Below are positions 3,849 to 55,694 of a stretch of 64,000 bases of DNA, one piece after another. Each line of letters opens with the position of its first letter. Within the stretch, counting starts at the first letter, position 1. The notes beneath the pieces are model-generated. The model had not been told where the DNA came from. It worked only from the letters and a program-made list of their open reading frames with translations, and ran no database searches. The translations under genes were made by a program, and so were the position numbers. The stretch comes from a virus: IMG/VR virus record IMGVR_UViG_3300045988_151747; one strand, written 5' to 3'.

Positions 3849-5509
3849 TAGTACGAATGTCTTTTTATTGCGTTAATTGTTTCAGTTATTCCGCCATACA
3901 GGGGGTTATCGGAAACTTCCATTTCTTCCTTAACCTCCACTTCCTCATTTGCAGCAAGACACATAAGTGCCGCACTGTCCACCATATCGTCAAAATACCC
4001 TTCCGTTTTTTCGCATACCATAAAGGAGCCGTTGAAATACTTCTGGCAGTTTTTCATCTGTTCCTCGAATTTGGAATACTCGGAAGTTCCTCTCACCACT
4101 TTATTAGCCGGAACTATAAGTCTGCGTGTCTTAATGTCAGAGATGAAATTATACCACATGTCTGATTTGCTCTGTGCGGTGAAAGTATATGGAGTTATAT
4201 CCACGTATTCGCCACAAGCATACATAAGCCGGTCAACAACGGGTTTTCCCACACCAGTATAATCCGCGTATATTTTGGCGATATTAAATTCGGCTATATA
4301 ATCAAGAAGTATATGATGCTGTTCCTCATAATCAGCACCACCAAGACACGCCCAGCATAATACCTGCTTATATGGATTCTTAAACGGTTCATCCAAGTCT
4401 TTCCACGACTTACCTATGGTAAGCACTGTTTCAGCAGGAGATTTACCGATATCCAAACCAGCCACAACAAAATCGGTAACATTGGGAACCTGAAATCCCA
4501 ACTTGCGGTTTATGATTCCATTAAATTCCTTATCCGTAAGAAGCATACCGCTTTCAATATCCCAAATAAGGGCGTAGGCAAGTTTGAACGCTTGTGATTC
4601 CTCACCCCAACGTTCACGCTTGCGATAAATATCAGCTTCGTAATTCAAATGGAATCTCTTTCCGTCCTTTTCATACTGTTCCCGTCTGCTGGCGATAATC
4701 TTCTTATAATCATATTCGTAATGATGCCGTACCCGTGGGTCAAGGCACTTCCTGTCCAGTTCACGGTTATGCTTTATTTCATAGTAGAAATGGTTCTTGG
4801 TCATACCTGTTGTACCTACCTTTATAAGAGTACCTGCGGTTGAGGAAAGCATAGGTTCGATAGACTTGCTGACAATAAGGTCGTCAACATCCTGCGCTTC
4901 TTCGACAATAACCAAATCATACGTCTTTGATTCAATCTTGGATTGCTTACTGGCAACCTGTCCGGCAAGAAAAGAACCGTTTGACAATTCAAGGCGTGCC
5001 ACACTTTCTAGCCATACGTCAATATCCGGGTCTGTAAGAACCATATCCGCATTTGCAGACCTCAGTCGGGTCATTGAACGTGAATAGGTAGTGACAACCT
5101 GGTCTGACTGGGGGGCGAAAAGCCCTACACGGAATCCGGTTTTGAACTGTTCCAAGTCGGGAATGATTGAAGCCAGTGCCGGAAGAATAACACATAACGT
5201 ATCAATGACAAAAGCCATAACCTCGGATTTACCCGACTGACGGGAAAGAAGCACTGTCTTTACGTCACCCGAAAAAGTTATCACGGAGTATATGATTCCG
5301 TATGCTATATCTTCCTGATAGGAATACAGGGAAATACCAGTAAGAACTTTGCCGAACTCCATAATCTTGGCGGTTACATCGTGGGCATCAAACTCCACGG
5401 TTTTACCTACCAGTTCCTCGGTATGTATTTCGGAAACGCTCTTACCAGTAGCCTCGAACACGTATCCCTGTTCCTTTAGTTCTTTTTTCTTCTTACTACG
5501 TACAGGCAT
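3848..5509 (-). CDS. terminase large subunit (T4 gp17-like)
   Basis: Walker A-like LLSRQSGKSE (compare T4 gp17 SRQLGKT), Walker B-like YDLVIVEEAQ, and a C-terminal RNase H-like nuclease region (VVAGLDIGK). 553 aa. Confidence 0.9.
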   Translation of the reverse strand: MPVRSKKKKELKEQGYVFEATGKSVSEIHTEELVGKTVEFDAHDVTAKIMEFGKVLTGISLYSYQEDIAYGIIYSVITFSGDVKTVLLSRQSGKSEVMAFVIDTLCVILPALASIIPDLEQFKTGFRVGLFAPQSDQVVTTYSRSMTRLRSANADMVLTDPDIDVWLESVARLELSNGSFLAGQVASKQSKIESKTYDLVIVEEAQDVDDLIVSKSIEPMLSSTAGTLIKVGTTGMTKNHFYYEIKHNRELDRKCLDPRVRHHYEYDYKKIIASRREQYEKDGKRFHLNYEADIYRKRERWGEESQAFKLAYALIWDIESGMLLTDKEFNGIINRKLGFQVPNVTDFVVAGLDIGKSPAETVLTIGKSWKDLDEPFKNPYKQVLCWACLGGADYEEQHHILLDYIAEFNIAKIYADYTGVGKPVVDRLMYACGEYVDITPYTFTAQSKSDMWYNFISDIKTRRLIVPANKVVRGTSEYSKFEEQMKNCQKYFNGSFMVCEKTEGYFDDMVDSAALMCLAANEEVEVKEEMEVSDNPLYGGITETINAIKRHSY

Positions 5510-5510
5510 A

Positions 5511-6038
5511 TTATTCCTCTCTTATATCATAAGACATATTACCTTTCATATTCCGCCATGTTTGGAGAAAAACGTTACACTCTTTAGAATAGGGCATGAA
5601 GCTGTCACTCTCCACCCAACAATTGGGAGTTTCATAAAGGCGTATCTTTTCAATCTGAATACCATGTTCCGAGGGAGTGAAGAACTTCCGGAATACGGTA
5701 AACAGTTCTCCGGCTATGTTTTCGGCAGACGGGTTTATGTCCGTTTTGATACCAAGCCCCATTTCATATACTTTCCAATTATTGGAACGGCACAATTTAA
5801 GAAGTTCCGTATCCATAGGATTAAGAATACAGGCATGGTCTAAAAACTCGTCAATGAAATCACCGCATACACGCTTCAATTCCTTGAAATCTATGGCATA
5901 GCCTATTTCCTTTACGTCCATATAGGAAAAAGTGGCTTCCACTTTAAAACGGTGTCCGTGAAGATTGAAACATTTCACCTTCTCGTTCATAACCCGATGT
6001 GCACTGTCAAACTCAAATACTCTAGTTACTGTTGCCAT
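5511..6038 (-). CDS. queD: 6-carboxy-5,6,7,8-tetrahydropterin synthase QueD
   Basis: N-terminal signature FEFDSAHRV...CFNLHGHRFKVEATF matches the QueD/PTPS family His/Cys motif. It has a C-terminal extension relative to the typical protein of about 120 aa. Confidence 0.88.
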   Translation of the reverse strand: MATVTRVFEFDSAHRVMNEKVKCFNLHGHRFKVEATFSYMDVKEIGYAIDFKELKRVCGDFIDEFLDHACILNPMDTELLKLCRSNNWKVYEMGLGIKTDINPSAENIAGELFTVFRKFFTPSEHGIQIEKIRLYETPNCWVESDSFMPYSKECNVFLQTWRNMKGNMSYDIREE

Positions 6039-8966: not shown

Positions 8967-10378
8967 TTATCACTTTTCAATAATACCTCACGTCCGAAGA
9001 ATATACCTTCCTCATCAATAGCGGTAATCTCTTTCTTAGACCATTTGTCAAGCAGGATAAGAATCTTGTCACCCACTTCAACACCTTCCCAAAGAATATC
9101 TTGGGGAGCATACAAATCCACAGCCGAGAACAGACAGTTTATGATATTCACGTTCTCCACGGTATTCGCAATGAGTTTCTTGTTGAACTCGATTTTCTTA
9201 TCCACGTCAATGGGATTCTTCAACAACTGGGTAGCGGTTATATCACCTTTGACAAACCGCATAAGCTGATACATTGCTTCCGGACAATAGTGTAACAGGT
9301 AGTCAACCAAGAAAGGAACAGCCGGAATGGCTTTACCGTCAACGATTATCTTGTCACCGTCAATTCGCTCAACATTATGGAACTCCGGAAGCAGAGTGCC
9401 CACGAATTTATATGTAGGTTCCTTGCTGGGAGTTTCAAACGTTTCCTCACGTGTAAGTTCCTCCAGTTTGTTAAGGAATGACTTGTATCTTATCTTGCGA
9501 TTTGAAAGGTCGGTCAAAAGAGCCTTCACGTTTTTCTGCCAGCGTCTAAAGGGAATCATATCCGCAAACAGCATAGGGTCGAAATCAGCCAGCTTACCGT
9601 TACGTATCCATGTGATTTTGCTCAGAACTTTCTTACGTAAAAGGTCAAAGTCCGGTTCTTCTTCCTCTTCAACCACGATTTCCTTTTCAGCTTTCTTCTT
9701 GGATTTCTTGGCTTCCTTACCACGCTCAACGGCAGCAGCAAGTTCCTCAGATGTATGTTCAACTCTTGAAGTTTCAAAAAAATCTCCCAATTCAGCCGGA
9801 GTAGGGATGCCCTCGAACGGTGTGTCTACAACCTTATATTTTTTGGTCGTATCTTCAACCATAAATCCGTTTTCCTTGGTACATGAAATACGGTATCCAC
9901 GGAAATGGAGTTTCCCTTTCTTGATTGTCACATCCTCACCGAAATAACGGTCTTTCAGATAACGCTGGTAAGTGGTAAGGCTCATTTCGTCCGTATCGAC
10001 AATATCAGCCAATTGGGAGAAATCACCTATGACCTTATGGCAGGTTTTCTTTATCGTGTCAATCTCATACAGTTTACCGTTAACGGATGGAGCCACTTCA
10101 ATGGATTCCGACTTTTTGGTTTTCTTGGGTTTTGCTTCCGATACAGGAGCAGACGGTTTAGGTTCTTCCGCCGGTTTCACCTTGACAATACCAAGAACAC
10201 CTTTGACGTAATCAAGAAGTTCGGGATTCTCTGCCTTGAGAAGCTGGAACACTTCAATCTTTCCACCCATTTTTTCAACGATGCCTTCAACCTGTTTTCT
10301 TTCAAGTTCCACATTGGGAGTTTTACCGAATCTTGTTCTGAATCCTTTTACTGTGCTGATGAATTTTTTTGTTTCCAT
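8945..10378 (-). CDS. hypothetical protein (477 aa)
   Basis: Long uninterrupted minus-strand ORF with a charged K/E-rich linker. No motif recognised. Confidence 0.6.
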   Translation of the reverse strand: METKKFISTVKGFRTRFGKTPNVELERKQVEGIVEKMGGKIEVFQLLKAENPELLDYVKGVLGIVKVKPAEEPKPSAPVSEAKPKKTKKSESIEVAPSVNGKLYEIDTIKKTCHKVIGDFSQLADIVDTDEMSLTTYQRYLKDRYFGEDVTIKKGKLHFRGYRISCTKENGFMVEDTTKKYKVVDTPFEGIPTPAELGDFFETSRVEHTSEELAAAVERGKEAKKSKKKAEKEIVVEEEEEPDFDLLRKKVLSKITWIRNGKLADFDPMLFADMIPFRRWQKNVKALLTDLSNRKIRYKSFLNKLEELTREETFETPSKEPTYKFVGTLLPEFHNVERIDGDKIIVDGKAIPAVPFLVDYLLHYCPEAMYQLMRFVKGDITATQLLKNPIDVDKKIEFNKKLIANTVENVNIINCLFSAVDLYAPQDILWEGVEVGDKILILLDKWSKKEITAIDEEGIFFGREVLLKSDKWIKLED

Positions 10379-10390
10379 AATTTTGTGAGA

Positions 10391-10753
10391 TTAAATGTTT
10401 GATACTTTTTTAATTGTTGCCGGAGCGTTATTCTTATACAGGTACGCCCACTTTGTAACCTGTTCCATTGTTCTTGGTACGATACTGTCGTACTTCTGTT
10501 TGCCATTGCCGAAATCATGTCTGAAAACGGCTCCATCGGTGTTGTCACATAGGAACTCCAATATCCTTACAGCCTTGTTCCATACGGAACGTTTATAAAA
10601 CTGGGGCTTGCAGAATCCTATGAAAATCAAATCTACGGTTTCTTGTATTCCCATTTGGTAAATTGTAAGCAGGGAATCAAAGTTCCCTACTATAAAGTTT
10701 AATGAATGACTGCCAGTTGATATGCCGTGTATCGCAAAAGGTAACGGCTCCAC
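10391..10753 (-). CDS. hypothetical protein (possibly the C-terminal part of a frameshifted gene)
   Basis: 120-aa ORF starting at GTG 10753, with an alternative ATG at 10654. It overlaps the previous ORF by 77 nt next to an A6 run. Confidence 0.4.
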   Translation of the reverse strand: MEPLPFAIHGISTGSHSLNFIVGNFDSLLTIYQMGIQETVDLIFIGFCKPQFYKRSVWNKAVRILEFLCDNTDGAVFRHDFGNGKQKYDSIVPRTMEQVTKWAYLYKNNAPATIKKVSNI

Positions 10754-10985
10754 AATTTTTTCGCTTCAATAAATCATTGAGCATCTTACGTTCCTCAGAT
10801 GTTATTCCGTCAGTTTCAAACCCGTCAACATAATAGGCTTGTTCAAAAGCGGCTTTAGATACACCGAGTTTTTTGCTCCACCTGTTTATGAAAGCGGCTT
10901 CGTTCTTTGCGCTGGTGTTCATTTCACTTTCCTTACACATGGTATTCCTGTCAACCATGCTGATGCTAATTCTAACTTTCTTCAT
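10677..10985 (-). CDS. hypothetical protein
   Basis: 102-aa ORF directly downstream of duplicated promoter cassette copy A. Confidence 0.5.
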   Translation of the reverse strand: MKKVRISISMVDRNTMCKESEMNTSAKNEAAFINRWSKKLGVSKAAFEQAYYVDGFETDGITSEERKMLNDLLKRKNCGAVTFCDTRHINWQSFIKLYSREL

Positions 10986-10998
10986 AGACCGTTCGTTT

Positions 10999-11086
10999 TA
11001 TTTCGATACACAAAAGTAGTTATTTTTTTCGGAATAACAAAATAGTAAGATACTTTTTTCAGGGTAACTATATTAATATTTGTTAA
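10999..11086 (-). repeat. 88-bp direct repeat, copy A (promoter cassette)
   Basis: About 93 percent identical to 13685-13772. The first 46 nt are identical (TATTTCGATACACAAAAGTAGTTATTTTTTTCGGAATAACAAAATA). Confidence 0.9.
11011..11041 (-). promoter_or_regulatory. Bacteroidota-type promoter (TTTG-N19-TACTTTTG) inside repeat copy A
   Basis: Minus strand: TTTG at 11041-11038, TACTTTTG at 11018-11011. It ends 26 nt upstream of the ATG at 10985. Confidence 0.65.
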
Positions 11087-11330
11087 TCGATAGTGCAGCG
11101 TTAAACAGGTGCACAAACTGGTATATAGTAATAATGAGTTCGGAAAATTGGTTTATATCAGTTAGTTCATGAAACGTACTTAAATCAATCGGCTCGTTAC
11201 CAACGTAACGGTACATTTTGGGAGGCTCGTTTTCGGTTACTGTAAACTTATACATATAGCTTTCCACTTTATCGGATATAAGCACAAACCAAAAATTGTC
11301 CTTGTCAGAACGCAAGAAATATCTTTCCAT
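11073..11330 (-). CDS. hypothetical protein
   Basis: 85 aa counted from the ATG at 11330, which sits right after the topoisomerase stop. The longest ORF extends to 11441, but that part overlaps the upstream gene. Confidence 0.45.
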   Translation of the reverse strand: MERYFLRSDKDNFWFVLISDKVESYMYKFTVTENEPPKMYRYVGNEPIDLSTFHELTDINQFSELIITIYQFVHLFNAALSINKY

Positions 11331-11331
11331 G

Positions 11332-12105
11332 TCATTTTTGTTTTTCCGGAAATGCAACATCATACATATAATCCCAAAGGTACGGGTCGATATAGCTGGT
11401 CTTGCATACCGATGCCGTATTGTTAAGTTTCTCGGAAACATCGGTACACACCTGTTTCACTAAAGCATTGAAAGCCGATTTGGTTTTAACCTCCATCAGT
11501 TCATCCTTATGCCGGCTGAATGATTTCCACGCTTCGATGTTGGCTCTCATGGTACGCAAATCCTTAGGAGTGAAATTTGCTCCTATATGACGCTTGACAA
11601 ACTTGGTAAACTCATAGGCGGTTATCTCGAACAGCGTTTCCGGAGGCTGTGCGGTAAGTTTGATTTTCTCCACATGGGTCGCAAGGTCGCCGGTTACAAC
11701 AAAGCTGTTCTTTACGGAACGTTTCCCCAAGAAGTTCAGATAGACCTTACCACCTCTTAGTGTAACGTGTTCCGGAAGCAAGGTGGTAAGACCATAGGTC
11801 TGAACGAACTCCGGTTCACGTGTCTTGTCATAGGGGCTTACGGTTGTCATATATCCTTCCGCCGAAGATTCGTTCCCTATGCGGATGCCCGTATGGAGCA
11901 TCAGCCGGCACGCACACGCCAGCCGGGCGTTCAGTGTTACAAGTTCTCCCCTTTTTGCAATACGCCCCATCATGGAGTCAAGTCCGGTAAACAGTTTAGC
12001 CAGTTTCACCATCCTGTTGAACTTTCCCGAATAGCTTCCTTTCGGGGAGCGGAAAAACGTTATCATTTCACCGTCCACTTCAAACGTATATGTACCTATC
12101 CCCAT
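11332..12105 (-). CDS. DNA topoisomerase IB
   Basis: Family signatures read in order: HTGIRIGNE, YGLTTLLPEHVTLRGGKVYLNFLGKRSV, FTPKDLRTMRAN, and the catalytic-Tyr context TASVCKTSYIDP. An alternative longer start lies at 12213. Confidence 0.85.
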   Translation of the reverse strand: MGIGTYTFEVDGEMITFFRSPKGSYSGKFNRMVKLAKLFTGLDSMMGRIAKRGELVTLNARLACACRLMLHTGIRIGNESSAEGYMTTVSPYDKTREPEFVQTYGLTTLLPEHVTLRGGKVYLNFLGKRSVKNSFVVTGDLATHVEKIKLTAQPPETLFEITAYEFTKFVKRHIGANFTPKDLRTMRANIEAWKSFSRHKDELMEVKTKSAFNALVKQVCTDVSEKLNNTASVCKTSYIDPYLWDYMYDVAFPEKQK

Positions 12106-14392: not shown

Positions 14393-14568
14393 AAGCAGTA
14401 TGTTTCTAATTTAAATTCATTCCGTTTTCCAGTGACAGGAACGTCCGGACAATAATATTAAATATCATATTATATATTCCTTATAGTTATAGTAGTTATT
14501 AATATTAATTGCCACGAAGTTCCCTGCACCTTTATCGTATTGTCAATATTTAGTTCTTTTCATCAAAG

Positions 14569-14599
14569 TAAATATACGAAATATTTCACACCCGTCAAA
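14569..14599 (-). promoter_or_regulatory. candidate promoter (TTTG-N19-TATATTTA)
   Basis: Minus strand: TTTG at 14599-14596 and a 7/8 -7 box at 14576-14569. It lies about 180 nt upstream of the ATG at 14392. Confidence 0.35.
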
Positions 14600-14923
14600 A
14601 CTCCGCACACTCACCCGTTCGCACACGAAGTATTTATTTTCAAATATGCAAATGCCACACAAAACCCGCAATTTTCACACAAGCCACACCACTCACACCG
14701 TTCCACACACAATCCATACATCATCCACACGCCACACAGTTACTTTTATTTTTATCAAAGTAAAAAATACAGGTTCCAAAATCTACTGTCTAACCTACGT
14801 CAACCACCCGACCCGTTTCCCGTACCCGATTCCATTTAAGGGTGGGGGCTGTCTATTCGAGCTATCATAGGTGAAATGCCACACATCCCTCTGGTTATTT
14901 CCATCCAAATATCTGCCACACAC
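14587..14923 (-). repeat. one-orientation CACAC / GCCACAC motif array
   Basis: At least 12 CACAC pentamers, all on the plus strand. They include five GCCACAC copies at 14654, 14683, 14731, 14878 and 14915, plus ACTCAC(C/A)CCGTTC at about 14608 and 14691. Confidence 0.85.
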
Positions 14924-14990
14924 ATTGCTTTCAAAGTAACAACCCTATCTATGTTCTATCCGTGATAAAAGTAACTGTTCTTTTCTGAAA

Positions 14991-15184
14991 AATAACCGCC
15001 GGAAAAGTTAGTCTATATAATTAGAAAAACAAAAACGCCGGAAAGTTATTCTGTATAATATATAGTAGCCAATTAAAAACGCCCGTAATTAAATTAATCT
15101 AGTTACCTATATCAAAGTAAGCCTCGTTTTTCCCTATGCTGGAGTAATAAAAACGCCTATATGGACAATCTTCCTGTATAAAAT
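14991..15184 (-). repeat. direct repeats AA(A/T)AAC(C)GCCGGAAA(A)GTTA..TCT.TATAAT
   Basis: Units at 14991-15022 and 15031-15062 are about 80 percent identical. AAAAACGCC recurs at 15031, 15075 and 15149, and the third unit ends in CTGTATAA. Confidence 0.75.
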
Positions 15185-15587
15185 AAGTAGTTTCCTAGGA
15201 AATTCCGGTATAACATGGATAATCTTATTATCTATATACGTAAAATAACACGCCAATTAGCCAAATTACAGCGATTTTCTACCCTGCTGCCGCTAATTAC
15301 ACAGCAAAAAGCTGTCTTTTACCTTTCCCGCTTAGATATAGCTGTGGTTGAATAATGTCTAAGGTACTTATAAGTAGTATATCTATTGTTATTATTAGTA
15401 TTATATAGATATATTAATAGTAAAACATTAACCCGCGAATGGGTTTCCGGAGATTCCGCGCATTTTCTCCCATGTAGTTACATATAAAACCGCAGTTTTA
15501 CCCCCTTATTTGCTTGGTTAGATAATCTACCCTACTATAATTACTCCTTATTACCACTACCTAATTACCTGACAGCCAAAATAAAAA

Positions 15588-15628
15588 CCCGTTTATGCGG
15601 AAATTTTTATTTTCACGCACAAAACGGG
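15588..15628 (-). terminator. rho-independent terminator (strong)
   Basis: CCCGTTT-A-TGCG / CGCA-CA-AAACGGG stem of 11 bp with a 16-nt loop, followed on the minus strand by TTTTTATTTTGG. Confidence 0.6.
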
Positions 15629-15694
15629 CTAATCAATTCGAGTCTTTTAAATACAAATTTGTGGTTGAGTAAGGTTTTTACTCAAAGTAAAATG

Positions 15695-15724
15695 AAAGGA
15701 GCCACTTTCACAAGCAACTCCTTT
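15695..15724 (-). terminator. hairpin, possible terminator
   Basis: AAAGGAG / CTCCTTT 7-bp stem with a 16-nt loop, followed by CATTTTAC on the minus strand. Confidence 0.35.
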
Positions 15725-15750
15725 CTGTGTATAAACTAAATAAACTAATC

Positions 15751-15768
15751 TTCCCAACGCTTTGGGAA
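15751..15768 (-). terminator. hairpin downstream of dps, possible terminator
   Basis: TTCCCAA / TTGGGAA 7-bp stem with a 4-nt loop, 44 nt after the dps stop. The trailing tract is only moderately U-rich. Confidence 0.4.
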
Positions 15769-15811
15769 AGGCAAATGTAAATAAAGCTAATTATAAACAC
15801 CGACTAAAAGA

Positions 15812-18896: not shown

Positions 18897-19568
18897 TTAT
18901 CCAATCGCTATCATTTGGTAAAATTCCTGTTTCAGTTCGCCTTCAAAGAAATCTCCCCCCAAACGACAGGTAACAGTATCAGAATTTATATCCTCAATTC
19001 CTCTCAGTTTCACACAAGTGTGTTCCGCTTTTATGAGAACGGCTACATTGTCCGTATCAAGTATATAACTCAAAGCATAATAAATTTGTTCGCAAAGTCT
19101 TTCCTGAACTTGCGGTCTACGACAGAAAAATTCCACAATACGGTTGATTTTGGAAAGCCCGATAACAGTATTGTTAGGAATATAGGCAATAAAAGCCTCA
19201 CCCATCATAGGAATGAAATGATGCTCGCAAGTCGAGTGAACCTTGATGTGTCGTTCAAGAAGCATACTACTGTAATGCATCTTATTCTGTATAGTGGTTA
19301 TCTTAGGGAAATTATGGTAATCAAGCCCCCAAAATATTTCATCCACATACATACGGGCAATTCTTTTCGGAGTATCCGAAAGCGAATCATCATCCATATC
19401 CAAACCCAATGAGGTCATTATATTATGAACGGATTCCTCAATTACTTTTTTCTTGGAATCGGTATCAAGGGAAGCACTTATTTCCAAAGGGGTTTCAACA
19501 CCATTATTCATAAGTTCCTTATGGACTTTAATCCCAAGTTCATAGTCAGTCTTATTTTTATCCAACAT
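18897..19568 (-). CDS. folE: GTP cyclohydrolase I (FolE)
   Basis: Signature STCEHHFIPMMGEAFIAYIPNNTVIGLSKINRIVEFFCRRPQVQERL closely follows the GCH-I consensus CEHH..P..G.A.VAYIP...V.GLSK..R.V....RR.QVQERL. Confidence 0.92.
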   Translation of the reverse strand: MLDKNKTDYELGIKVHKELMNNGVETPLEISASLDTDSKKKVIEESVHNIMTSLGLDMDDDSLSDTPKRIARMYVDEIFWGLDYHNFPKITTIQNKMHYSSMLLERHIKVHSTCEHHFIPMMGEAFIAYIPNNTVIGLSKINRIVEFFCRRPQVQERLCEQIYYALSYILDTDNVAVLIKAEHTCVKLRGIEDINSDTVTCRLGGDFFEGELKQEFYQMIAIG

Positions 19569-25983: not shown

Positions 25984-26733
25984 TTACAAGTCTTTTGGAA
26001 TATATACTTTATTAATTTGATTCTTGAACACATCATACATACATCCCATCTTGTGTGCCTGCATATTCAATATGACAAAACTTGACAGGTTATCCTTGGA
26101 TAGGTTTTCCATAAGTTCGGCATAAGTAAGTTTTGAACCCCACATAAGTCCGGCAGCTATTTTACCTTTAAATTTCGGGTGTGCACCTATCCATTCTTTC
26201 ATTTGTTCATAGTCGGAAATATCATCTATGACAAATTTAAGATAATCGTGTTCATCCATAAGCACCCAGTTTTCCGAGCGCATTTTTGTAGTTTCTCCTG
26301 TACTGCCTAGTTTATAGTCAACCACAAAAGATATACGATTTACGTACTCTCCGCCCATGTCACCATAGTAATTTCTGAAAGGAACATAATTGGCTAGGGA
26401 AACAGACCCGTTAGTTTCTACCACGATAAGAAAGTTAGCTTGAATGAGGTCTGTAATCAACTTAGGAATATCTGGGCGCTTCAACAATGGTTCACCACCT
26501 GTAAGGCAAATGATGTTATGCCCTATATCATGGCACGTGGCTAGTATTTCGTCAAGTCCCATTTCGGTTCCACTACTCATTTCCAATGCCTCCGGAGTAT
26601 CACAAAGAACTCCTTTGGTTGATTTGTAACATCTCAAGTTACATCCTGATAAACGGATAAAAGTACATGGCATACCGATTCCGAATCGGTTTACCTCACC
26701 CATATAGCCGGGATAGATGCTGTTTATTTTCAT
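25984..26733 (-). CDS. queE: 7-carboxy-7-deazaguanine synthase QueE (radical SAM)
   Basis: PCTFIRLSGCNLRCYKSTKGVLCDTPEA (Cys cluster followed by CDT) and LTGGEPLL match QueE-type radical SAM enzymes. 249 aa. Confidence 0.85.
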   Translation of the reverse strand: MKINSIYPGYMGEVNRFGIGMPCTFIRLSGCNLRCYKSTKGVLCDTPEALEMSSGTEMGLDEILATCHDIGHNIICLTGGEPLLKRPDIPKLITDLIQANFLIVVETNGSVSLANYVPFRNYYGDMGGEYVNRISFVVDYKLGSTGETTKMRSENWVLMDEHDYLKFVIDDISDYEQMKEWIGAHPKFKGKIAAGLMWGSKLTYAELMENLSKDNLSSFVILNMQAHKMGCMYDVFKNQINKVYIPKDL

Positions 26734-26744
26734 ATTGGTTATAT

Positions 26745-27200
26745 TTAGAATGATAAGACAAATAATTTTTCCGAGCGGTTAAGATAAGGGGAAAACATTT
26801 CTCTCTTACTTTTGTAGATGCCGCAAAAGTACCCTATGGCATTTACAATCGTATCACGGAGTTTAGGTTTCTCACTACGCAAAAGGTCTATAAGCCTTTC
26901 GGCACGTTCCTCGGTAGGAGTATCCAAGTAGTCGTTTATACGTTCATAGTATCTTCCCAGCGTGATATTACCCCTTACCATAGGGTAGTAAGTCTGATGT
27001 CGGTAATAGTTAGCCATTTCCCCTAATAGGGAAATACATATAACACCTCCGGCAAGTTCAGCCAGACGTGTGTTTTCTACAATCTTGTTTTTAGTTCCGG
27101 TCAAGGATTTCAAAGGCTTTTCACAACCTTTGGGAACTCTAAATTCAATAGAACTCCCCACTAAGTAGCGGAAGAGTTCTTGGGTACGTTTGTTCTCCAT
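26745..27200 (-). CDS. hypothetical protein inside the deazaguanine gene cluster
   Basis: 151-aa ORF between queE and dpdA. No motif recognised. Confidence 0.5.
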   Translation of the reverse strand: MENKRTQELFRYLVGSSIEFRVPKGCEKPLKSLTGTKNKIVENTRLAELAGGVICISLLGEMANYYRHQTYYPMVRGNITLGRYYERINDYLDTPTEERAERLIDLLRSEKPKLRDTIVNAIGYFCGIYKSKREMFSPYLNRSEKLFVLSF

Positions 27201-27255
27201 AACTGTCTAGGTTTCTTATGATATTTTGTAGAATGTAGTCTGCGTTTCGGTTTTC

Positions 27256-28014
27256 TCATTGCCGTTTTCTTTTACGTGAAACTTTTTCGGTTTCCTTTTC
27301 CTCCACTATTTCCTCCACATCAACTATATCCTCACGTGAGGACGGTTTTGCCGGAATGGATATGGTGGACGGTTGTTCTATTTCCTTGGGAGCACCTCCG
27401 AATATTTTGGATAAGATACCACCGCCGGCAGAAGTGGCAGCACCCCCAGCAGCACCTTTAGCCTCGATATTTACCGATATTCGTTCTCTTCCCAGTTCGG
27501 CTTTAGCAGCCATCAAATCATTAAGGCGGTCAATCTCTCCGGAAAGTCCGGCATCAGCGACACCACCGTCAACCTTTTCAATAACAGAACCTCTTCTTAC
27601 TCTTTCATACTGGATGTCAATAAGGAAGTCCATCATATCGGCAGGTGTGGCAGGTTTCTTGTCACCCCAGTCTATACCACAGGCAAAATCCTTTCTGTAC
27701 ATAGGACACTTGTCATAAATGTAGCAGGAATTGCAGTTCATTCCTACGCCTATAATCTCATTTACAGATACCTTGTCACGGGTATTGACAATAAACTTGT
27801 CAAAGTCCTCACACCATATATCCATAGGGAGAGTTTTTATCCGCTTAAGATAATACTCCCGGCAGTCAAGAAGATTATCCTCGGTTTTTCTACAAGTCAT
27901 GCAGTCGGGATAACCCCCTTTTTCAAAGAAAGGACACAAATGTCTTTTCAACAAATCAGCATCCTCCGTACCACGAACAGCCTCGATTCTTTTTTCAATT
28001 GTATCAGTTGCCAT
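27256..28014 (-). CDS. cysteine-rich hypothetical protein inside the deazaguanine gene cluster
   Basis: 252 aa. Contains CPFFEKGGYPDCMTCRKTEDNLLDC and CNSCYIYDKCPMYRKDFAC, then a Gly/Ala-rich and acidic tail. Confidence 0.5.
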   Translation of the reverse strand: MATDTIEKRIEAVRGTEDADLLKRHLCPFFEKGGYPDCMTCRKTEDNLLDCREYYLKRIKTLPMDIWCEDFDKFIVNTRDKVSVNEIIGVGMNCNSCYIYDKCPMYRKDFACGIDWGDKKPATPADMMDFLIDIQYERVRRGSVIEKVDGGVADAGLSGEIDRLNDLMAAKAELGRERISVNIEAKGAAGGAATSAGGGILSKIFGGAPKEIEQPSTISIPAKPSSREDIVDVEEIVEEKETEKVSRKRKRQ

Positions 28015-28015
28015 A

Positions 28016-28945
28016 CTATCTTCTTGTTTTATCGTAATACAAAACAGGTTTATTCTTTAGCTTGCAGTGAGCGATTTTAAGAAATTCCCTGCGGAATCCC
28101 AACCACCCTAGCAGGTTCATGTTATTTATAGGAATACGCTTTTCACCACGTATATCTTCCATACTCAGCCCGGCATCCTCATATTTGATACGGTTAGCCT
28201 TTCTTCTGTACTTATGTTTGTAGTCAATGGTGCTGAAATTTTTCCCGTCATAGTTATAAGTAGTACCAAAACGAGTACCTCCTAACCATGTTACAGAATC
28301 CACGGAAAAGAAAGGGAATCTTTGCAACAGGTTCATTTCGGTCCAAGCAAACCCATGTACTTTTGTTCCATAGGCATTTGTAATGCGATATATCTCGGCA
28401 GCATTATCTTTCATAGTCTGGTTACATCCTACGTAGTTATGTTGCTGGCAATACTCTTTAAGCCGTAACAGACCAGTCTTGTCACCCTGTGCGTCCTGAT
28501 GCACCACATATACTACGTTTATATCCTTTTCGAGCGGTTTGAAATATTTTTCATTCCATCGGTCAACAACTTCCCTACCTACAATCATGTCCAAGTCAAG
28601 GTTTGCAGCGACAAATATAAACTTTTTATTTTCATGCAACCAAGCCACGTATTCCTCCAAATAAGGAAGCCAGTATTCTTCGGTAGTCATTTTATGCTCC
28701 ACTTTTTTACCCATAAAGGAGAAAGCTCCGGAGTCCGTCATAAATATACCACCTTCCTTATGTTGTTTCTCCAATTGCGGTGGGTAAAATTTGAGTGACT
28801 TTCTCAAGTAGAAGTAAGAAACCAACGTGTCCTTTATACCGAAATCCCGTAATGTGGTATAATCACCTACGGATGATGCGGAAAAGAACAGAGTGGCTTT
28901 TCTTTTACTCAACTCATTACCTTCTTCAAGAACTCTGCGCTCCAT
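28016..28945 (-). CDS. dpdA: DpdA-like DNA guanine transglycosylase (TGT superfamily)
   Basis: FMTDSGAFSF matches the catalytic DSGGF/DSGAF motif of the TGT/DpdA family. 309 aa. It overlaps queC by 37 nt. Confidence 0.75.
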   Translation of the reverse strand: MERRVLEEGNELSKRKATLFFSASSVGDYTTLRDFGIKDTLVSYFYLRKSLKFYPPQLEKQHKEGGIFMTDSGAFSFMGKKVEHKMTTEEYWLPYLEEYVAWLHENKKFIFVAANLDLDMIVGREVVDRWNEKYFKPLEKDINVVYVVHQDAQGDKTGLLRLKEYCQQHNYVGCNQTMKDNAAEIYRITNAYGTKVHGFAWTEMNLLQRFPFFSVDSVTWLGGTRFGTTYNYDGKNFSTIDYKHKYRRKANRIKYEDAGLSMEDIRGEKRIPINNMNLLGWLGFRREFLKIAHCKLKNKPVLYYDKTRR

Positions 28946-29535
28946 TTTTCCCTACGTAATGAAGTTATTACTTTCTGGCATTTGTCACATACTCCGCAAT
29001 TGCGCTTTTCGTTTTCCCCATCGGGGCAAAAAGTAAGATGCGAGTAATCTAGCGTACTTAGTTTCTTAGCCAGCTTTACAAACGGCACATTCATTGCCGG
29101 AGCAAGAAGTTTAATCTTATAAGATTTGGCGAACAAATATCTTGCCTCTTCATAGAAAAGATAACCACCGTCAAACCATGAACTTCCCAAATCCACAGCA
29201 CCGTATGCCACTTTCTTTATTCCCATAGCAGTAGCATAATTACCTGCCATAGAAAGAAACAAAAGATTCCGGCAGGGAATATCCACATTATGCACGTTAC
29301 CATCCTTATCACGAATAGGCTCAAACTGTAAGGGGTAAGTTACTTTGCGGAAACTCTTGACGGAATCTTTATAGACTTCAATATAATAACCTATTGCGGA
29401 CAGTTCTTTTTCAATATTGTCCTGCCCATAGTCAACATAGAACAAATGAATATCATACGATTTGGAGAGTTTATCCAGATTATACAGGCTTTCAAAACCT
29501 CCAGTAAACAGCAAAACTACTTTTTCTCTTTTCAT
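28909..29535 (-). CDS. queC: 7-cyano-7-deazaguanine synthase QueC
   Basis: N-terminal PP-loop variant VVLLFTGGFES (canonical SGGxDS) and C-terminal zinc motif C-x10-CGVCDKC. 208 aa. Confidence 0.8.
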   Translation of the reverse strand: MKREKVVLLFTGGFESLYNLDKLSKSYDIHLFYVDYGQDNIEKELSAIGYYIEVYKDSVKSFRKVTYPLQFEPIRDKDGNVHNVDIPCRNLLFLSMAGNYATAMGIKKVAYGAVDLGSSWFDGGYLFYEEARYLFAKSYKIKLLAPAMNVPFVKLAKKLSTLDYSHLTFCPDGENEKRNCGVCDKCQKVITSLRREKWSAEFLKKVMS

Positions 29536-29554
29536 AATCTTATTAAATAGAAAA

Positions 29555-29578
29555 AGCCCACTATGTAAATAGCAGGCT
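29555..29578 (-). terminator. rho-independent terminator (strand-specific)
   Basis: 10-bp stem that is complete only in the minus-strand RNA (two G-U pairs), with a 4-nt loop and a following TTTTTCTATTT. It ends 20 nt upstream of the queC ATG. Confidence 0.65.
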
Positions 29579-29601
29579 TTTTGTGAATACTTTTGGAGGG
29601 C

Positions 29602-29739
29602 TTAACGTCTACGTCCACCACGAGTAGAAGTTCTACGTCCACCGCCACCACGGGTAGCAGTTCTACGAGTAGCACCTCCACCGCCTCTACGAGCAGTACG
29701 GGCAGCGCCACCACCGCCTCCACCTCTAGTTGTTCCCAT
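29602..29739 (-). CDS. 45-aa Arg/Gly-rich peptide
   Basis: Hand-translated MGTTRGGGGGGAARTARRGGGGATRRTATRGGGGRRTSTRGGRRR. It is built from imperfect tandem DNA repeats and has its own terminator. The two ORF-track entries here are other frames of the same repeat. Confidence 0.5.
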   Translation of the reverse strand: MGTTRGGGGGGAARTARRGGGGATRRTATRGGGGRRTSTRGGRRR

Positions 29740-29851: not shown

Positions 29852-30145
29852 TTATATACTTAAAAAGAATATTTTAAGTCCAATAGCAGTAGTATTCAAG
29901 GACGCATCCTGAAAAAACGGCTGGACACCTATCAATATTCCCTTTTTAGCAAAAAATTTATTGCTTATAATCGCACCCTTAATAGCTTGGTTAAGCGCAC
30001 CCGCACCAATAACTCTTATTATAATATCATTATCGGGATTGCTTTGGTAGGTAGAATAAATACTACCAGCCAATTTCTTGGCATCAGTAGATGAACTGCA
30101 TCTTAGGGTAGTGACTTTTTCTTGTACTTCATTAATTGCTTCCAT
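29852..30145 (-). CDS. SpoVS-like protein
   Basis: VIGAGALNQAIKGAIISNKFFAKKGILIGVQPFF...TTAIGLKIF aligns by eye with Bacillus SpoVS AIGAGALNQAVKAVAIARGFVAPSGVDLICIPAF...RTAIKLIV. Confidence 0.75.
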   Translation of the reverse strand: MEAINEVQEKVTTLRCSSSTDAKKLAGSIYSTYQSNPDNDIIIRVIGAGALNQAIKGAIISNKFFAKKGILIGVQPFFQDASLNTTAIGLKIFFLSI

Positions 30146-32219: not shown

Positions 32220-32296
32220 TGGTGATTCCAAAGTGGCTCGAACACTTGACCCACGCCTTAAAAGGGCGTTGCTCTATCCAACTGAGCTATGGAACC
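32220..32296 (-). tRNA. tRNA-Lys (anticodon UUU) with encoded CCA
   Basis: The manual cloverleaf folds cleanly. Acceptor GGTTCCA / TGGAATC; D arm GCTC-AGTTGGATA-GAGC; anticodon arm ACGCC-CTTTTAA-GGCGT; T arm AAGTG-TTCGAGC-CACTT; ending ACCA. Confidence 0.9.
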
Positions 32297-32409: not shown

Positions 32410-34233
32410 TTATAAAACATGAACTTTTGCTGCACTTAGAGTAGCTTTCTTGATTACTTTCCCTAAGCTGAAAGCGAGATTACTCATGTCCTCAAGCACA
32501 ACCCAATGTTTGAACATTGTCTTTGGGTCATAACACATATTAATACAGACCTGAATTACAGTAAAGTCCATTTTCTCTACTTTATCCACACATTCCTTTG
32601 TATGTTCTATCGCCTTACTGCCCCTGTAACGGGAAGCACTCGGTTCACCGTCTGATAGAACAAACAGCAAAACATGATTCTGTGTCTGTTTGCGAATACG
32701 CTGGGCGGTTTCAAGTATGGCAATACCATCCCTGTTTTCACATCTTGCCTCAACAGAACCCAGGGAATACCTTGGCTTGAAAGTTTTTTCACGATAAATC
32801 ATTAGTTCGGTAGCACCGTCAAAACGACTGTCACCCGAATGACCGTAAATGAACAGTTCCACTTTTGGAGAATCCCCCAAAGCCTCATTGATAAGTATGG
32901 CAGTATCACGGGCAGCTTCTATTCTACCACCGCACATGGAACCACTCTCGTCAATAAGCACGCCCACACTTACACCGTCAGTCCTTACTTCACCTTGTCG
33001 GATATATACGGTAGGAACACCCTGTACGGCTTCGGCAAGTTTGGAAGTATCCAGCATACCGCTTCTCATAGAGCGGTGTATGTACTGGTATTCCTTACAA
33101 TGGCAACGTATAACTTTGGATATTGCCGGAGCATAACGTTTAACTCTGGCAAGTGATTCCTTGTACCGTTCCTCATTAGTAGGAGGAAATTTGAAAAAGG
33201 CATCCTTGGTTCCTCCCATATCTACTGTGCCCTCACATACATCTCCAAGCAAACCTCTGTCCTTTTTCACGGCATCAGCAATTTTGGAGTCATCCATACG
33301 GTCCGGCATTGAACGGTCAAGTTTGTCAAGTATATCTGAACTGTCGGATGCCATTCGTTTCTCAACCTCCACACCCGATAGTCCTCCTCCGGAAGCGGAA
33401 TCCTCTTTCATTTCCTCTTCAAGTTTGTCCTTATAGAACTCTTTAAGAATATCAAAAACCTTATAGGCAGCGAGAACCGTTTCCTTAGTAGTTACTGGAT
33501 AGGGTAAAAGCACTTTCTTTATTTCAACGAGATATGGAGCATACTTTACTATCTCGGCTTCATCTATGTATTTAGGGTATCGGACAATCTCCAGTATAAG
33601 ATTGAGAAGAACCTCAAAATCATTAAGTTCCGATTTTTCTTTTTTGGGAGCGACATAATCCAAGTAGTAACTGTCAAACCAGTAATATTTGCTTCGTTCC
33701 AAGAATCGTGCGAAACCCGGTTTCAAATCACCGCAAAGTTTCTCAATACGTTCATCTTCCAGTATATTGAATAATCGGGATATGATTCTGTTACCGATAG
33801 AAGTCAGACGTTCCTTGTTTGTGTACAACAAGTGGCATCCCTCATGTACAGTGGTCCCCAAAAATACGTCCAACCGTTCACCAACAGTAAGAGCCTTGTC
33901 AGTAAGCATTATGGTGGAAACCTGTACTTTCTGAAAGTCAGTGAAACTGTCCTCCCCGTTATGAATTACAACTTTTACCTTGTAGGGAATATCCATAGAA
34001 GTTATCATATCACGTGCCAGAGGATATGCACGCTTTATCAGTTCTGCTTCATCAGCACATTCCAGATAGTAGGAAGAATAGGCACTTCCCTCTTCCAAGG
34101 TACTTTCCCAATCAAGTTTCCCCTCTTTTCGTATATGTGTGAACGCCTTACCGTCACGTTCCAACCAATCTTCCAAAAGTTCGTCCACGATTTCATCGGT
34201 GACAACCATATCTTTATCCACAGCCATAGTCAA
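32410..34233 (-). CDS. von Willebrand factor A domain protein (CobT-like)
   Basis: C-terminal vWA MIDAS motif VGVLIDESGSM. 607 aa. It is paired with the upstream AAA+ ATPase. Confidence 0.75.
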   Translation of the reverse strand: MTMAVDKDMVVTDEIVDELLEDWLERDGKAFTHIRKEGKLDWESTLEEGSAYSSYYLECADEAELIKRAYPLARDMITSMDIPYKVKVVIHNGEDSFTDFQKVQVSTIMLTDKALTVGERLDVFLGTTVHEGCHLLYTNKERLTSIGNRIISRLFNILEDERIEKLCGDLKPGFARFLERSKYYWFDSYYLDYVAPKKEKSELNDFEVLLNLILEIVRYPKYIDEAEIVKYAPYLVEIKKVLLPYPVTTKETVLAAYKVFDILKEFYKDKLEEEMKEDSASGGGLSGVEVEKRMASDSSDILDKLDRSMPDRMDDSKIADAVKKDRGLLGDVCEGTVDMGGTKDAFFKFPPTNEERYKESLARVKRYAPAISKVIRCHCKEYQYIHRSMRSGMLDTSKLAEAVQGVPTVYIRQGEVRTDGVSVGVLIDESGSMCGGRIEAARDTAILINEALGDSPKVELFIYGHSGDSRFDGATELMIYREKTFKPRYSLGSVEARCENRDGIAILETAQRIRKQTQNHVLLFVLSDGEPSASRYRGSKAIEHTKECVDKVEKMDFTVIQVCINMCYDPKTMFKHWVVLEDMSNLAFSLGKVIKKATLSAAKVHVL

Positions 34234-34412
34234 TATGTTATTTTAAATAGTTCCTTTTTATAATACCCGGTTTTAAGCAACTCGGATTTCTTGGCATTAA
34301 GTATAGGAAACGCCCTATCTTTCAAGATGCGTTTCCCGTTATACCACAAGCTACCGTAGGTCTTTTTCTTAGGTTTGTCTACGGGAAATTGATTACTTGT
34401 TGCCATAGGCAA
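34230..34412 (-). CDS. hypothetical small basic protein
   Basis: 60-aa ORF between the ATPase and vWA genes, with a 4-nt overlap. Confidence 0.45.
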   Translation of the reverse strand: MPMATSNQFPVDKPKKKTYGSLWYNGKRILKDRAFPILNAKKSELLKTGYYKKELFKITY

Positions 34413-34419
34413 GAAATTT

Positions 34420-35637
34420 TTATCTACTACTAATCACCCTGCATACGATACCACGTTCTCCATCGGAGCGAGTACCTTCAAAAAGAGGAAGAAGAACCAG
34501 TTCCATAGCACGTACCAAATCCCATCCGTCAGCAACCAAGTCACCCACCATAAGAGTTTCACGGGTGGAAATGGAACTGCTTATCTCCTGTTTGTTATAC
34601 ATATTACGCAAACTGTTTGCAACCTTTGTAATAATTGTAGCGTCCGAAAGGGAAATTCCACAGCGTTTTACCAAAACCTTGTTTTCCTGTTCCGGTGGCA
34701 TATATGATAATTCGATAGGGAAGAAACGTCCTACAAGTGCACGGTCCATACTCATTGTACCCGTATATTCCACACCAACATTGGCAGTTGCTACAAAACA
34801 ACATTCCGGATGCACTTCTATTTCACGTAAGTCCTCACCGCCGGCAATTTCCACAGGAAGTTTTCTACGGCTGTCAAGACAGGGAAACAGAATGTTATTA
34901 GTAGTAACGGGTGCACGGGATAACTCGTCCAAAAGCACTACACCCGGTTTGGATATATCCCTTGTAAATTTGGCATAGTCAAATACTGATACACCTCCCT
35001 TTTGCAATCGGTGTACACCTAAAAGTCCGGCTACTGGGTCATACATGGAACCCATATCATAGACAGAACAGGATATGCCAAGTTTCTTACAGGCAAGTAA
35101 CACAAGTTCGGTCTTACCACCACCCGTAGCACCGATAAGCATCGTGTTCACCTGATTCTGAATATTACGCATAAGCAGATACCATACATCTGAATCTACA
35201 TAGAAACCCTCTGAACCGATAGAGGGGATTTTAAATTCCGGATTTGTTTTCATCTTCCCCAATAAAGTTTTGGAGGAAGTCTTGGTGTCCTTTTTTTCAT
35301 CTGAACTGCCAGAATCATAAGAAGAGGTGGAAGTACCTATAAATATTTCATAGGCTCTAACCATTTCTTCGGTAGGCTTATGTTTCGGGTCCCGATAATC
35401 AGCATCAAGAATACCGATAGGAAAGATGTTTCCTGCCTGATAATACTTACTGGCAGGCTTGAGCATATCGGTCACAAAGGTTGTACCCGTGGGGTACGCA
35501 TCCCTTAAAGACCTGTCGGCACTTACATTTACCGTGCTGTCGATTGTAGTACCATCTTCAAAAGTCTGACCGTTAAGTGCCTTACAACGTTGTCTACCCT
35601 CTTCTACGAGAGTTCTCAAAAAGTAATATTTTTCCAT
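34420..35637 (-). CDS. AAA+ ATPase (MoxR/CobS-like)
   Basis: Walker A LIGATGGGKTE and Walker B VVLLDELSRA. 405 aa. Confidence 0.8.
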   Translation of the reverse strand: MEKYYFLRTLVEEGRQRCKALNGQTFEDGTTIDSTVNVSADRSLRDAYPTGTTFVTDMLKPASKYYQAGNIFPIGILDADYRDPKHKPTEEMVRAYEIFIGTSTSSYDSGSSDEKKDTKTSSKTLLGKMKTNPEFKIPSIGSEGFYVDSDVWYLLMRNIQNQVNTMLIGATGGGKTELVLLACKKLGISCSVYDMGSMYDPVAGLLGVHRLQKGGVSVFDYAKFTRDISKPGVVLLDELSRAPVTTNNILFPCLDSRRKLPVEIAGGEDLREIEVHPECCFVATANVGVEYTGTMSMDRALVGRFFPIELSYMPPEQENKVLVKRCGISLSDATIITKVANSLRNMYNKQEISSSISTRETLMVGDLVADGWDLVRAMELVLLPLFEGTRSDGERGIVCRVISSR

Positions 35638-54983: not shown

Positions 54984-55694
54984 CTAAGGAAGAACAATCT
55001 CCCAATCATCGGCGAACATATCGCTAATAGACGGAACCCATGAATCAGCGCGTCCGGTATTCTCGTTGTAAATAAGGCATTGACTAGTATAGTCAATAAA
55101 TCCCTTACCTTTCAGAATAAGGTCTTTTGCCGATTGCGGAAGAGATTGCATCTTTGGAATAATGTCGCTATCTATATGAGCTGGAACCTGTTTGAATACC
55201 ATTAATCCTTTCCCGTTCCATCCACTTCTACGAATTGGATAACCTGCTTTGAGAGCCATAATAGCCATACCAAAGTTCATCTTCCGCACTTCTGCGCTAT
55301 CAGAGCCTTGCATACGTTGTATGCGAGTGTCAAGAAGCCGTATATAGTCGAACATAGTACAACACTGCATTTCCAGTAAACACTTGTTGTACATATCATT
55401 AACGACTTCATCCATTTTCCCTGAATCTATGAAAGCGGCCAACTTTACATATCTTCCATTGACTTCTTCGGCTTCTATCTGCATACGGTCAACTGGTGTT
55501 TCTGCAATCTTATATGCCTTTTCAAACACATCTTTCGGGCTCCAACTTTCGTACTCATCTTCATAACGGACATGATAGCCCTCATCATCGAAATTTTCCG
55601 TTGACGGTTTTTCTCTAAGAAGATGTTTTCCCCACGCATCACCTCTTGTCATAGGTTCTGCTTCAATCTGTTTTGTTCCAATGTACTTTTTCAT
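54984..55694 (-). CDS. DUF2829 (Tad2-like) domain fusion protein
   Basis: The C-terminal MNFGMAIMALKAGYPIRRSGWNGKGLMVF...DSWVPSISDMFADDWEIV follows the DUF2829 pattern F..A..ALK.G..V.R.GWNGKG...W.PS..D.LA.DW.I. About 125 aa of extra N-terminal sequence precede it. Confidence 0.65.
   Translation of the reverse strand: MKKYIGTKQIEAEPMTRGDAWGKHLLREKPSTENFDDEGYHVRYEDEYESWSPKDVFEKAYKIAETPVDRMQIEAEEVNGRYVKLAAFIDSGKMDEVVNDMYNKCLLEMQCCTMFDYIRLLDTRIQRMQGSDSAEVRKMNFGMAIMALKAGYPIRRSGWNGKGLMVFKQVPAHIDSDIIPKMQSLPQSAKDLILKGKGFIDYTSQCLIYNENTGRADSWVPSISDMFADDWEIVLP

Follow-up and report, generated by a model that had tools for sequence, protein, structure and literature searches.

Does a phage whose genes for making a 7-deazaguanine base lie scattered along its genome put that base into its own DNA, and by means of which enzyme? 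The question is raised by virus record IMGVR_UViG_3300045988_151747 of IMG/VR, of which the whole 64,000-nucleotide (64-kb) stretch analysed here is called the window. An initial annotation, made from the sequence alone, had read in it a pathway from GTP to 7-cyano-7-deazaguanine (preQ0), comprising folE, queD, queE and queC, together with a gene for a DpdA-like protein of the tRNA-guanine transglycosylase (TGT) superfamily, which would insert the base. Modifications of this kind, 7-deazaguanines in DNA, give phages resistance to restriction enzymes and hinder sequencing, cloning and phage genome engineering. We propose, with a probability of roughly 0.78, that this phage makes preQ0 and that a DpdA split into two genes puts it in the place of guanine in the double-stranded phage DNA, thereby countering restriction.

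The window is part of a tailed phage of about 91 kb, of a human-gut, Bacteroides-infecting type. Proteins identical to those of the window are encoded on contigs from human-gut metagenomes, the longest of 91,468 bp, and matches to Pfam and PHROG identified tailed-phage genes for capsid, SPP1-type portal, large terminase, family-A DNA polymerase, primase, DnaB-type helicase and RecA. Nearly all long open reading frames (ORFs) are on the minus strand, and the GC content is about 40%. The clade is abundant in human-gut metagenomes, where it forms hundreds of clusters at 90% identity with contigs of 70 to 100 kb. At the DNA level megablast found no close cultured phage, the sole match being 50 nt of intergenic sequence; the nearest cultured relative was Bacteroides phage BS162P1 (OP172706, 88.9 kb), with protein identities of 50-79% and almost no DNA similarity. 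Nearly every BS162P1 gene is labelled hypothetical, including all homologues of the genes discussed here, and a literature search of limited scope yielded nothing on BS162P1, nor on deazaguanine in Bacteroides phages of the gut.

A DpdA divided between two genes

All five annotated genes proved to be intact minus-strand ORFs at the positions given for them, and each motif quoted for them was present in the translations (coordinates are collected in Table 1). The gene on which the proposal turns is that for the transglycosylase. Its product, which we refer to as the barrel, matched phrog_887, 'queuine tRNA-ribosyltransferase', at 2.8e-33, and aligned at 35% identity over 227 aa (E 8e-34) with gp021 of Bacillus phage BCD7 (YP_007005872), a protein listed as DpdA, with FolE, QueD, QueE and QueC beside it, in Supplementary Data 1 of Hutinet 2019 (PMC6884629). 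When a profile of the barrel was compared by hhalign with the DpdA of Escherichia phage CAjan, the probability was 97.1% (E 6.7e-11) and the motifs LVSYFY, DSGAFS, HGF (HxF) and VDS(S/T)xW fell in register. Deletion of dpdA from CAjan leads to loss of 2'-deoxy-preQ0 (dPreQ0) from virion DNA (PMC6884629). The AlphaFold 2 model of the barrel (pLDDT 90.7, pTM 0.89) retrieved as its top three Foldseek matches in the PDB the bacterial TGT entries 1p0e and 5i03 and the archaeosine TGT (ArcTGT) 1j2b (E 4e-7 to 9e-5, TMq 0.51-0.59), with generic TIM barrels ranking behind them; in BFVD the matches included phage proteins labelled queuine tRNA-ribosyltransferase or TGT, plus proteins of phages R5C, phiST and nt-1.

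The pattern of conservation in the family is reminiscent of the catalytic set of such enzymes. Among 54 relatives at 20-50% identity to the barrel, the sole invariant columns were D71 (in TDSGAF), D117 and D216 (in VDSxTW), while H197-G198 was nearly invariant; H197 supplies the conserved His that has been noted for 9g-type DpdA. TGT and bacterial DpdA each have three catalytic Asp residues, D102/D156/D280 and D95/D130/D256, respectively (PMC10164549), of which D71, D117 and D216 would be the equivalents, the residue mapping being inferred and not superposed. LAGLIDADG-type inteins of about 390 aa lie exactly between VDS and (S/T)TW in DpdA relatives P0211, P0212, P0214, P0238, P0295, P0306 and P0341; their first residues are SV(S/G)... 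and their last VVHN, after which comes T or S, and the equivalent site in the window is at codons 216-219 of the barrel gene. As inteins typically lodge at functionally critical sites, their insertion between VDS and (S/T)TW marks this site of DpdA as functionally critical. The genomic setting points the same way: dpdA overlaps the 3' end of queC by 37 nt, queE is 1.3 kb off, the genome also contains folE and queD, and the association of dpdA with preQ0 genes recurs in BS162P1, in BCD7 and in the metagenomic relatives L006 and L008. The DpdA-like call of the initial annotation is thus supported by the PHROG match, the homology to BCD7, the alignment to CAjan DpdA, the fold and the invariant Asp residues. 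We conclude, on the basis of sequence comparison and a structural model, that the gene encodes a putative phage DpdA of a DpdA1-like BCD7/BRock branch that current curated profiles miss; an exhaustive search put the size of the family at 3,326 representative sequences.

What the initial annotation had taken for the whole transglycosylase was its catalytic barrel; it had overlooked the next ORF, the second gene of a two-gene module. The start codon of this partner gene is 1 nt past the stop codon of the barrel gene, and the two are probably translationally coupled. Its product matched positions 365-495 of the 509 positions of phrog_887 (2.9e-19) and, with 28% identity over 154 aa, residues 601-751 of the 757-aa BCD7 gp021. 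These matches indicate that DpdA of the BCD7 type consists of a barrel, a linker and a Cys-rich C-terminal domain, and that barrel and Cys-rich domain are encoded here by two genes. Eight cysteines of the partner (C27, C38, C41, C51, C94, C97, C103 and C112), arranged in two groups of four, were invariant in 25 homologues; after them come a conserved helical segment and a disordered tail carrying the motif GGIL(S/A)K(I/L)FGG, found in all 90 clade members (90/90). As free-standing proteins, the barrel has more than 200 homologues, of about 300 aa, and the partner has 90, of about 245 aa; BS162P1 is arranged alike. In most members of the DpdA subfamily, those of BCD7- and BRock-type phages included, the partner domain is instead fused to the C-terminus of the barrel. 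In the 149 best-ranking family representatives, the motif C-x2-C-x5-CP-x7-8-C was present in at least 49 of 112 long proteins and in none of 37 short ones. Stop-codon recoding or a frameshift was considered as the origin of the split and was rejected, as reading past the TAG soon meets a TGA, only a few codons on, and hundreds of clusters keep the two genes apart.

Among isolates, the partner domain was found only in records that also match this type of DpdA, namely BS162P1, a gut contig, BRock-like Streptomyces phages and BCD7, and tblastn with the Cys8 partner found no copy in any CAjan-type record. CAjan-type DpdA, whose barrel equals that of the window in length, has no Cys8 match, and the Cys8 domain is therefore not universal to DpdA. 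The partner had no match in Pfam, NCBIfam or PADLOC, its profile search against the PDB returned noise only, and its AlphaFold 2 model was poor (pLDDT 59.7). Its invariant cysteines and tail would be consistent with a metal-binding module for DNA binding or docking. A bolder version of the proposal, which we consider doubtful, would make the Cys8 protein an obligatory Zn or Fe-S subunit of this DpdA subfamily whose tail docks to DNA or to the replisome, for example to the sliding clamp, so that the transglycosylase would be a two-subunit enzyme coupled to replication; under this version the variant QueC described below could also give a base other than preQ0.

The pathway and the predicted base

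The preQ0 set FolE, QueD, QueE and QueC was confirmed by matches in Pfam, NCBIfam, PHROG and PADLOC and by motifs. FolE scored 300 bits against NCBIfam NF006824 (cut-off 202) and was 63% identical to its BS162P1 homologue. QueD contained the motifs FDSAHR and C-x3-HGH and matched TIGR03367 at 7e-19, under the cut-off. The top NCBIfam matches of QueE were the QueE models TIGR03963 (8e-29) and TIGR04349 (4e-27), and both scores were under the equivalog cut-offs. Its cluster motif was C-x3-C-x8-C (residues 31-44) instead of C-x3-C-x2-C, with all three Cys invariant; in an alignment, six residues were inserted between the second and third Cys relative to the QueE proteins of BCD7 and CAjan, and BS162P1 QueE has the insert too. 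QueC matched PF06508 at 4e-16 (59.6 bits, cut-off 22) and the PADLOC QueC model at 3.3e-10 and missed the NCBIfam cut-offs; the cysteines of its Zn site, C170, C180, C183 and C186, were invariant. Its PP-loop, already annotated as non-canonical, does read TGGFES in place of SGGxDS, and so retains the glycines and the spacing with S-to-T and D-to-E changes. TGGFES is kept in all four clusters homologous to the window QueC (47-99% identity), whereas BS162P1, BCD7 and CAjan have SGGxDS. The window QueC is about 25% identical to other phage QueCs and also only 25% identical to the BS162P1 QueC (SGGLDS) of the same locus, which indicates that queC has been exchanged between lineages.

In the mechanism that we propose, FolE would convert GTP to dihydroneopterin triphosphate, from which QueD would make 6-carboxytetrahydropterin, QueE 7-carboxy-7-deazaguanine and QueC preQ0. 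After replication, DpdA would exchange guanine for preQ0 in the double-stranded phage DNA, leaving dPreQ0 at a subset of G positions, and this base would blunt the host's restriction enzymes and possibly Cas nucleases. The transglycosylase itself would consist of the products of the two adjacent genes, the 309-aa TIM barrel with the catalytic Asp residues and the 252-aa Cys8 protein.

The prediction of dPreQ0 follows from a rule: the minimal set, comprising FolE, QueD, QueE and QueC plus DpdA, without QueF, ArcS or a Gat-QueC fusion, is tied to dPreQ0 in phages CAjan and Rosebush (PMC6884629). The window has the minimal set, and no downstream modifying enzyme was found. Pfam scans of about 100 further minus-strand ORFs revealed no QueF, ArcS, glutamine amidotransferase (Gat), formyltransferase, methyltransferase or 2OG oxygenase, which upholds the absence of QueF, ArcS and Gat-QueC from the window as first annotated; in flanks of 10 kb and 7.6 kb, precomputed Pfam matches were to structural genes, a reverse transcriptase and an amidase only, with no modifying enzyme among them. 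By analogy, then, dPreQ0 is the best prediction for the inserted base. It is not a secure one, because QueC is unusual and because gene content has mispredicted the base before, in phages 7-11 and MED16, which have dADG, and in HVTV-1, which has dPreQ1.

Comparison with known systems and weighing of alternatives

BCD7, catalogued as early as 2019 with these five functions and a homologous DpdA, resembles the window phage in all five of them, in the two regions of DpdA homology and in having a SpoVS-like gene in the same neighbourhood. It differs in that its barrel and Cys-rich domain form one protein and its pathway genes lie within about 5 kb, as compared with two genes and 24 kb in the window phage. 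CAjan, whose enzyme is of the DpdA1 type, has the same minimal gene set and a barrel of 306 aa, and the canonical Zn motif of TGT, CxCxxC...H, is missing from both barrels; the 309-aa window protein has no conserved Cys/His motif C-terminal to D216, and the invariant columns include no Cys. Pairwise similarity between the two barrels is confined to one 35-aa motif, and in CAjan the genes form a cluster that also encodes a putative preQ0 transporter.

Bacterial DpdA, from the Dpd system of Salmonella Montevideo, replaces G by preQ0 in DNA, depends for its activity on a second protein, DpdB, and is known from a crystal structure (PMC10164549). It shares with the window barrel the TGT-fold TIM barrel and conserved Asp residues. 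However, the window barrel lacks its Zn site, CxCx2Cx22H, no DpdA match came from the PADLOC library, in which the Dpd system is modelled, and the Cys8 partner has no detectable relation to the ParB-like ATPase DpdB; no ParB-like (DpdB) or DpdC-like domain appeared in Pfam scans of the window.

Much closer in arrangement is BS162P1, in which the order is SpoVS-like gene, small basic ORF, terminator, queC, dpdA, partner, a homologue of the 151-aa ORF and queE, with folE apart and queD beside terL. Unlike the window it has a QueC with the canonical loop and an extra 106-aa ORF, and its terL (9334-12057) is enlarged by an insert of about 1 kb with no counterpart in the window terL.

In the more distant relative L006 (JGI contig Ga0613783_0000029, 103 kb), whose DpdA is 52% identical to that of the window, queC and dpdA are separated by a gene for a 193-aa 2OG-Fe(II) oxygenase (5420-6001), and a DNA methylase of 592 aa is encoded nearby. 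The 7-deazaguanine of that phage may therefore be modified further; a gene of this kind is absent from the window.

Several observations weigh against a split DpdA that inserts preQ0 into DNA. The profile test by which the annotation could have been refuted gave a divided answer: phrog_887 was matched, but Pfam (including TGT, PF01702), the TGT models of NCBIfam and the bacterial DpdA model of PADLOC were not. None of the 54 distant relatives matched Pfam TGT, their matches being to HNH and miscellaneous domains only, and searches of PDB sequences with the barrel alone and with a 29-sequence profile found nothing. Against the single E. coli TGT sequence hhalign was non-significant (4.5% probability), although the sole stretch that it aligned was the catalytic TDSGGF motif, and the TM-score of the barrel model to TGT was only 0.59. 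BCD7, and with it the whole subfamily of BCD7, BRock and gut phages, is absent from Table 2 of phages with DNA mass spectrometry (PMC6884629). QueC and QueE scored under the NCBIfam equivalog cut-offs and have non-canonical motifs, so that the end product could differ. Finally, the absence of base-modifying enzymes covers the genome apart from about 6.5 kb of the tail region.

Alternatively, the same module might put a base other than dPreQ0 into the DNA, either because QueC stops at 7-amido-7-deazaguanine or because an unannotated neighbour, such as the 151-aa ORF or the Cys8 partner, modifies the base further, giving dADG, dCDG or an undescribed derivative. The divergence of QueC from other phage QueCs, its scores and the two changes in its ATP-binding loop, which are conserved in a small subclade, are in keeping with this, as are the three phages for which gene content mispredicted the base, and the oxygenase gene between queC and dpdA of L006 shows that the module gains extra chemistry. 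Yet the replacements of S by T and of D by E are conservative, the four Zn cysteines and the QueC architecture are intact, the window yielded no amidotransferase, reductase, oxygenase or transferase domain, and both analysed phages with exactly this minimal set, CAjan and Rosebush, contain dPreQ0 (PMC6884629). We regard a different base as rather unlikely. The fold of the barrel is that of a tRNA-guanine transglycosylase, and PHROG and GenBank label its homologues 'queuine tRNA-ribosyltransferase', so the genes might form an auxiliary metabolic module that raises preQ0 or queuosine, with the barrel tuning translation through tRNA and leaving the DNA untouched. But its closest validated relative, CAjan DpdA, acts on DNA, and it has no significant match to TGT in Pfam, in NCBIfam or from E. 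coli. Moreover, no QueF was found to make preQ1, the substrate of bacterial TGT; a search of the window for tRNAs of the Q family found none, the only tRNA being tRNA-Lys(UUU), with no GUN anticodon; and QueA, QueG and QueH occur in no virus according to Hutinet 2019 (PMC6884629). A role in RNA modification appears very improbable to us.

One could also take the dispersal over 24 kb, the transglycosylase in two pieces and the atypical motifs and sub-threshold family scores of QueC and QueE as signs of decay, that is, as remnants of a once-clustered operon in a phage that has lost DNA modification. All of the ORFs are intact, however, and both the dispersed layout and the split persist in BS162P1, at about 60% protein identity, and in hundreds of metagenomic clusters. 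Moreover, the catalytic Asp residues are invariant, as are all eight partner cysteines and the Zn ligands of QueC, and the atypical motifs of QueC and QueE are themselves conserved; we find decay scarcely credible.

If preQ0 is inserted into DNA by the split DpdA, as we favour, the DNA of these Bacteroides phages should be partly refractory to cleavage at G-containing restriction sites. The analysis makes modest additions to what was known from BCD7: a gut Bacteroides-type setting, a DpdA branch that profiles miss, a split barrel and Cys8 architecture, and non-canonical motifs that are conserved in QueC and in QueE. It draws attention to a DpdA subfamily that Pfam, NCBIfam and PADLOC overlook, although its representative sequences number more than 3,000, and to a conserved Cys-rich accessory domain. 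The known picture of how 7-deazaguanine DNA modification systems work stays unchanged.

Layout of the module and other features of the phage

Table 1. Positions of the pathway genes, the two-part transglycosylase and adjoining features in the window
Feature	Coordinates	Strand	Basis
Large terminase subunit, outside the pathway	3848-5509	minus	phrog_2 4.5e-16; followed by SPP1-type portal and capsid gene
queD, 6-carboxytetrahydropterin synthase (175 aa)	5511-6038	minus	PF01242 (PTPS) 2.5e-29; phrog_2389, QueD-like
folE, GTP cyclohydrolase I (223 aa)	18897-19568	minus	PF01227 (GTP_cyclohydroI) 9.7e-58; phrog_2197
queE, radical-SAM 7-carboxy-7-deazaguanine synthase (249 aa)	25984-26733	minus	phrog_2076, QueE-like, 4.9e-23
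151-aa ORF between DpdA partner gene and queE	26745-27200	minus	no family assigned
DpdA partner, Cys8 protein (252 aa)	27256-28014	minus	C-terminal domain of the long DpdA of BCD7 type, here detached
dpdA catalytic barrel (309 aa), candidate TGT-fold DNA transglycosylase	28016-28945	minus	phrog_887, BCD7/CAjan homology, fold
queC, 7-cyano-7-deazaguanine synthase (208 aa)	28909-29535	minus	PF06508; PADLOC QueC
Intrinsic-terminator-like hairpin and T-run	29551-29582	minus	14-pair stem, 4-nt loop, dG -15.8 kcal/mol, z -2.3
45-aa Arg/Gly-rich small ORF (MGTTRGGGGGGAARTARRGGGG...)	29603-29739	minus	translation; closed by terminator
SpoVS-like protein (97 aa)	29852-30145	minus	PF04232 2.3e-12

The initial annotation had singled out three features as unusual: genes scattered over 24 kb, with queD beside the terminase gene; the QueC loop; and a terminator just ahead of queC and dpdA. 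All three are real, but they are not peculiar to this phage, being lineage traits conserved in relatives, and as such they do not suggest a different mechanism. The pathway spans 5511-29535, and the gene following queD is indeed that for the large terminase subunit. The scatter is a stable trait of the lineage, because in BS162P1 too queD abuts terL and folE is located elsewhere; in the more distant L006, queD is near queE.

The hairpin and T-run, the strongest terminator-like site of the region, were present as annotated, but at 15 nt from the queC ATG, not 20, and the terminator belongs to the upstream 45-aa ORF. A different hairpin with a T-run occupies the same position in BS162P1. About 95 nt upstream of the 45-aa ORF are approximately 85-90% identical to BS162P1, far more conserved than the coding genes, and contain a Bacteroides-type TAnnTTTG element; the ORF probably specifies a strongly expressed small basic protein. 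As the terminator precedes queC and no promoter-like element fits in the 15 nt ahead of it, queC, dpdA and the partner gene are probably expressed by read-through. The SpoVS-like gene neighbours queC and dpdA in the window, BS162P1, BCD7, L006 and L008, that is, in every relative examined, which suggests a functional link to the module. The 151-aa ORF had no Pfam, NCBIfam, PHROG or PADLOC match; its BS162P1 homologue has the same place and 37% identity, and an HNH gene is found there in L006.

Outside the module, Rfam families, including the preQ1 riboswitch, were sought in the window and yielded only the single tRNA-Lys(UUU) gene (32220-32296, minus strand). A stretch of 1.4 kb (14400-15810) contains no coding-strand ORF longer than 42 aa and no Rfam match, and has a GC content of 0.36, below that of the rest. 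Pfam matches to a type IB topoisomerase, a ferritin-like protein and a sigma-70-family protein occurred among the minus-strand ORFs of 111-21552, without being mapped to single ORFs. At 32410-35637, a gene for a CobT-like VWA protein (607 aa) adjoins one for an AAA_5/CbbQ-type ATPase (405 aa), resembling the CobS/CobT-like pairs of other phages, and the 236-aa product of 54984-55694 has Tad2-like (anti-Thoeris) and crAss001_48/Sequestin domains. Just outside the window, a reverse-transcriptase gene of the same phage (17701-18897 of contig L009) is located amid tail genes and may be part of a diversity-generating retroelement.

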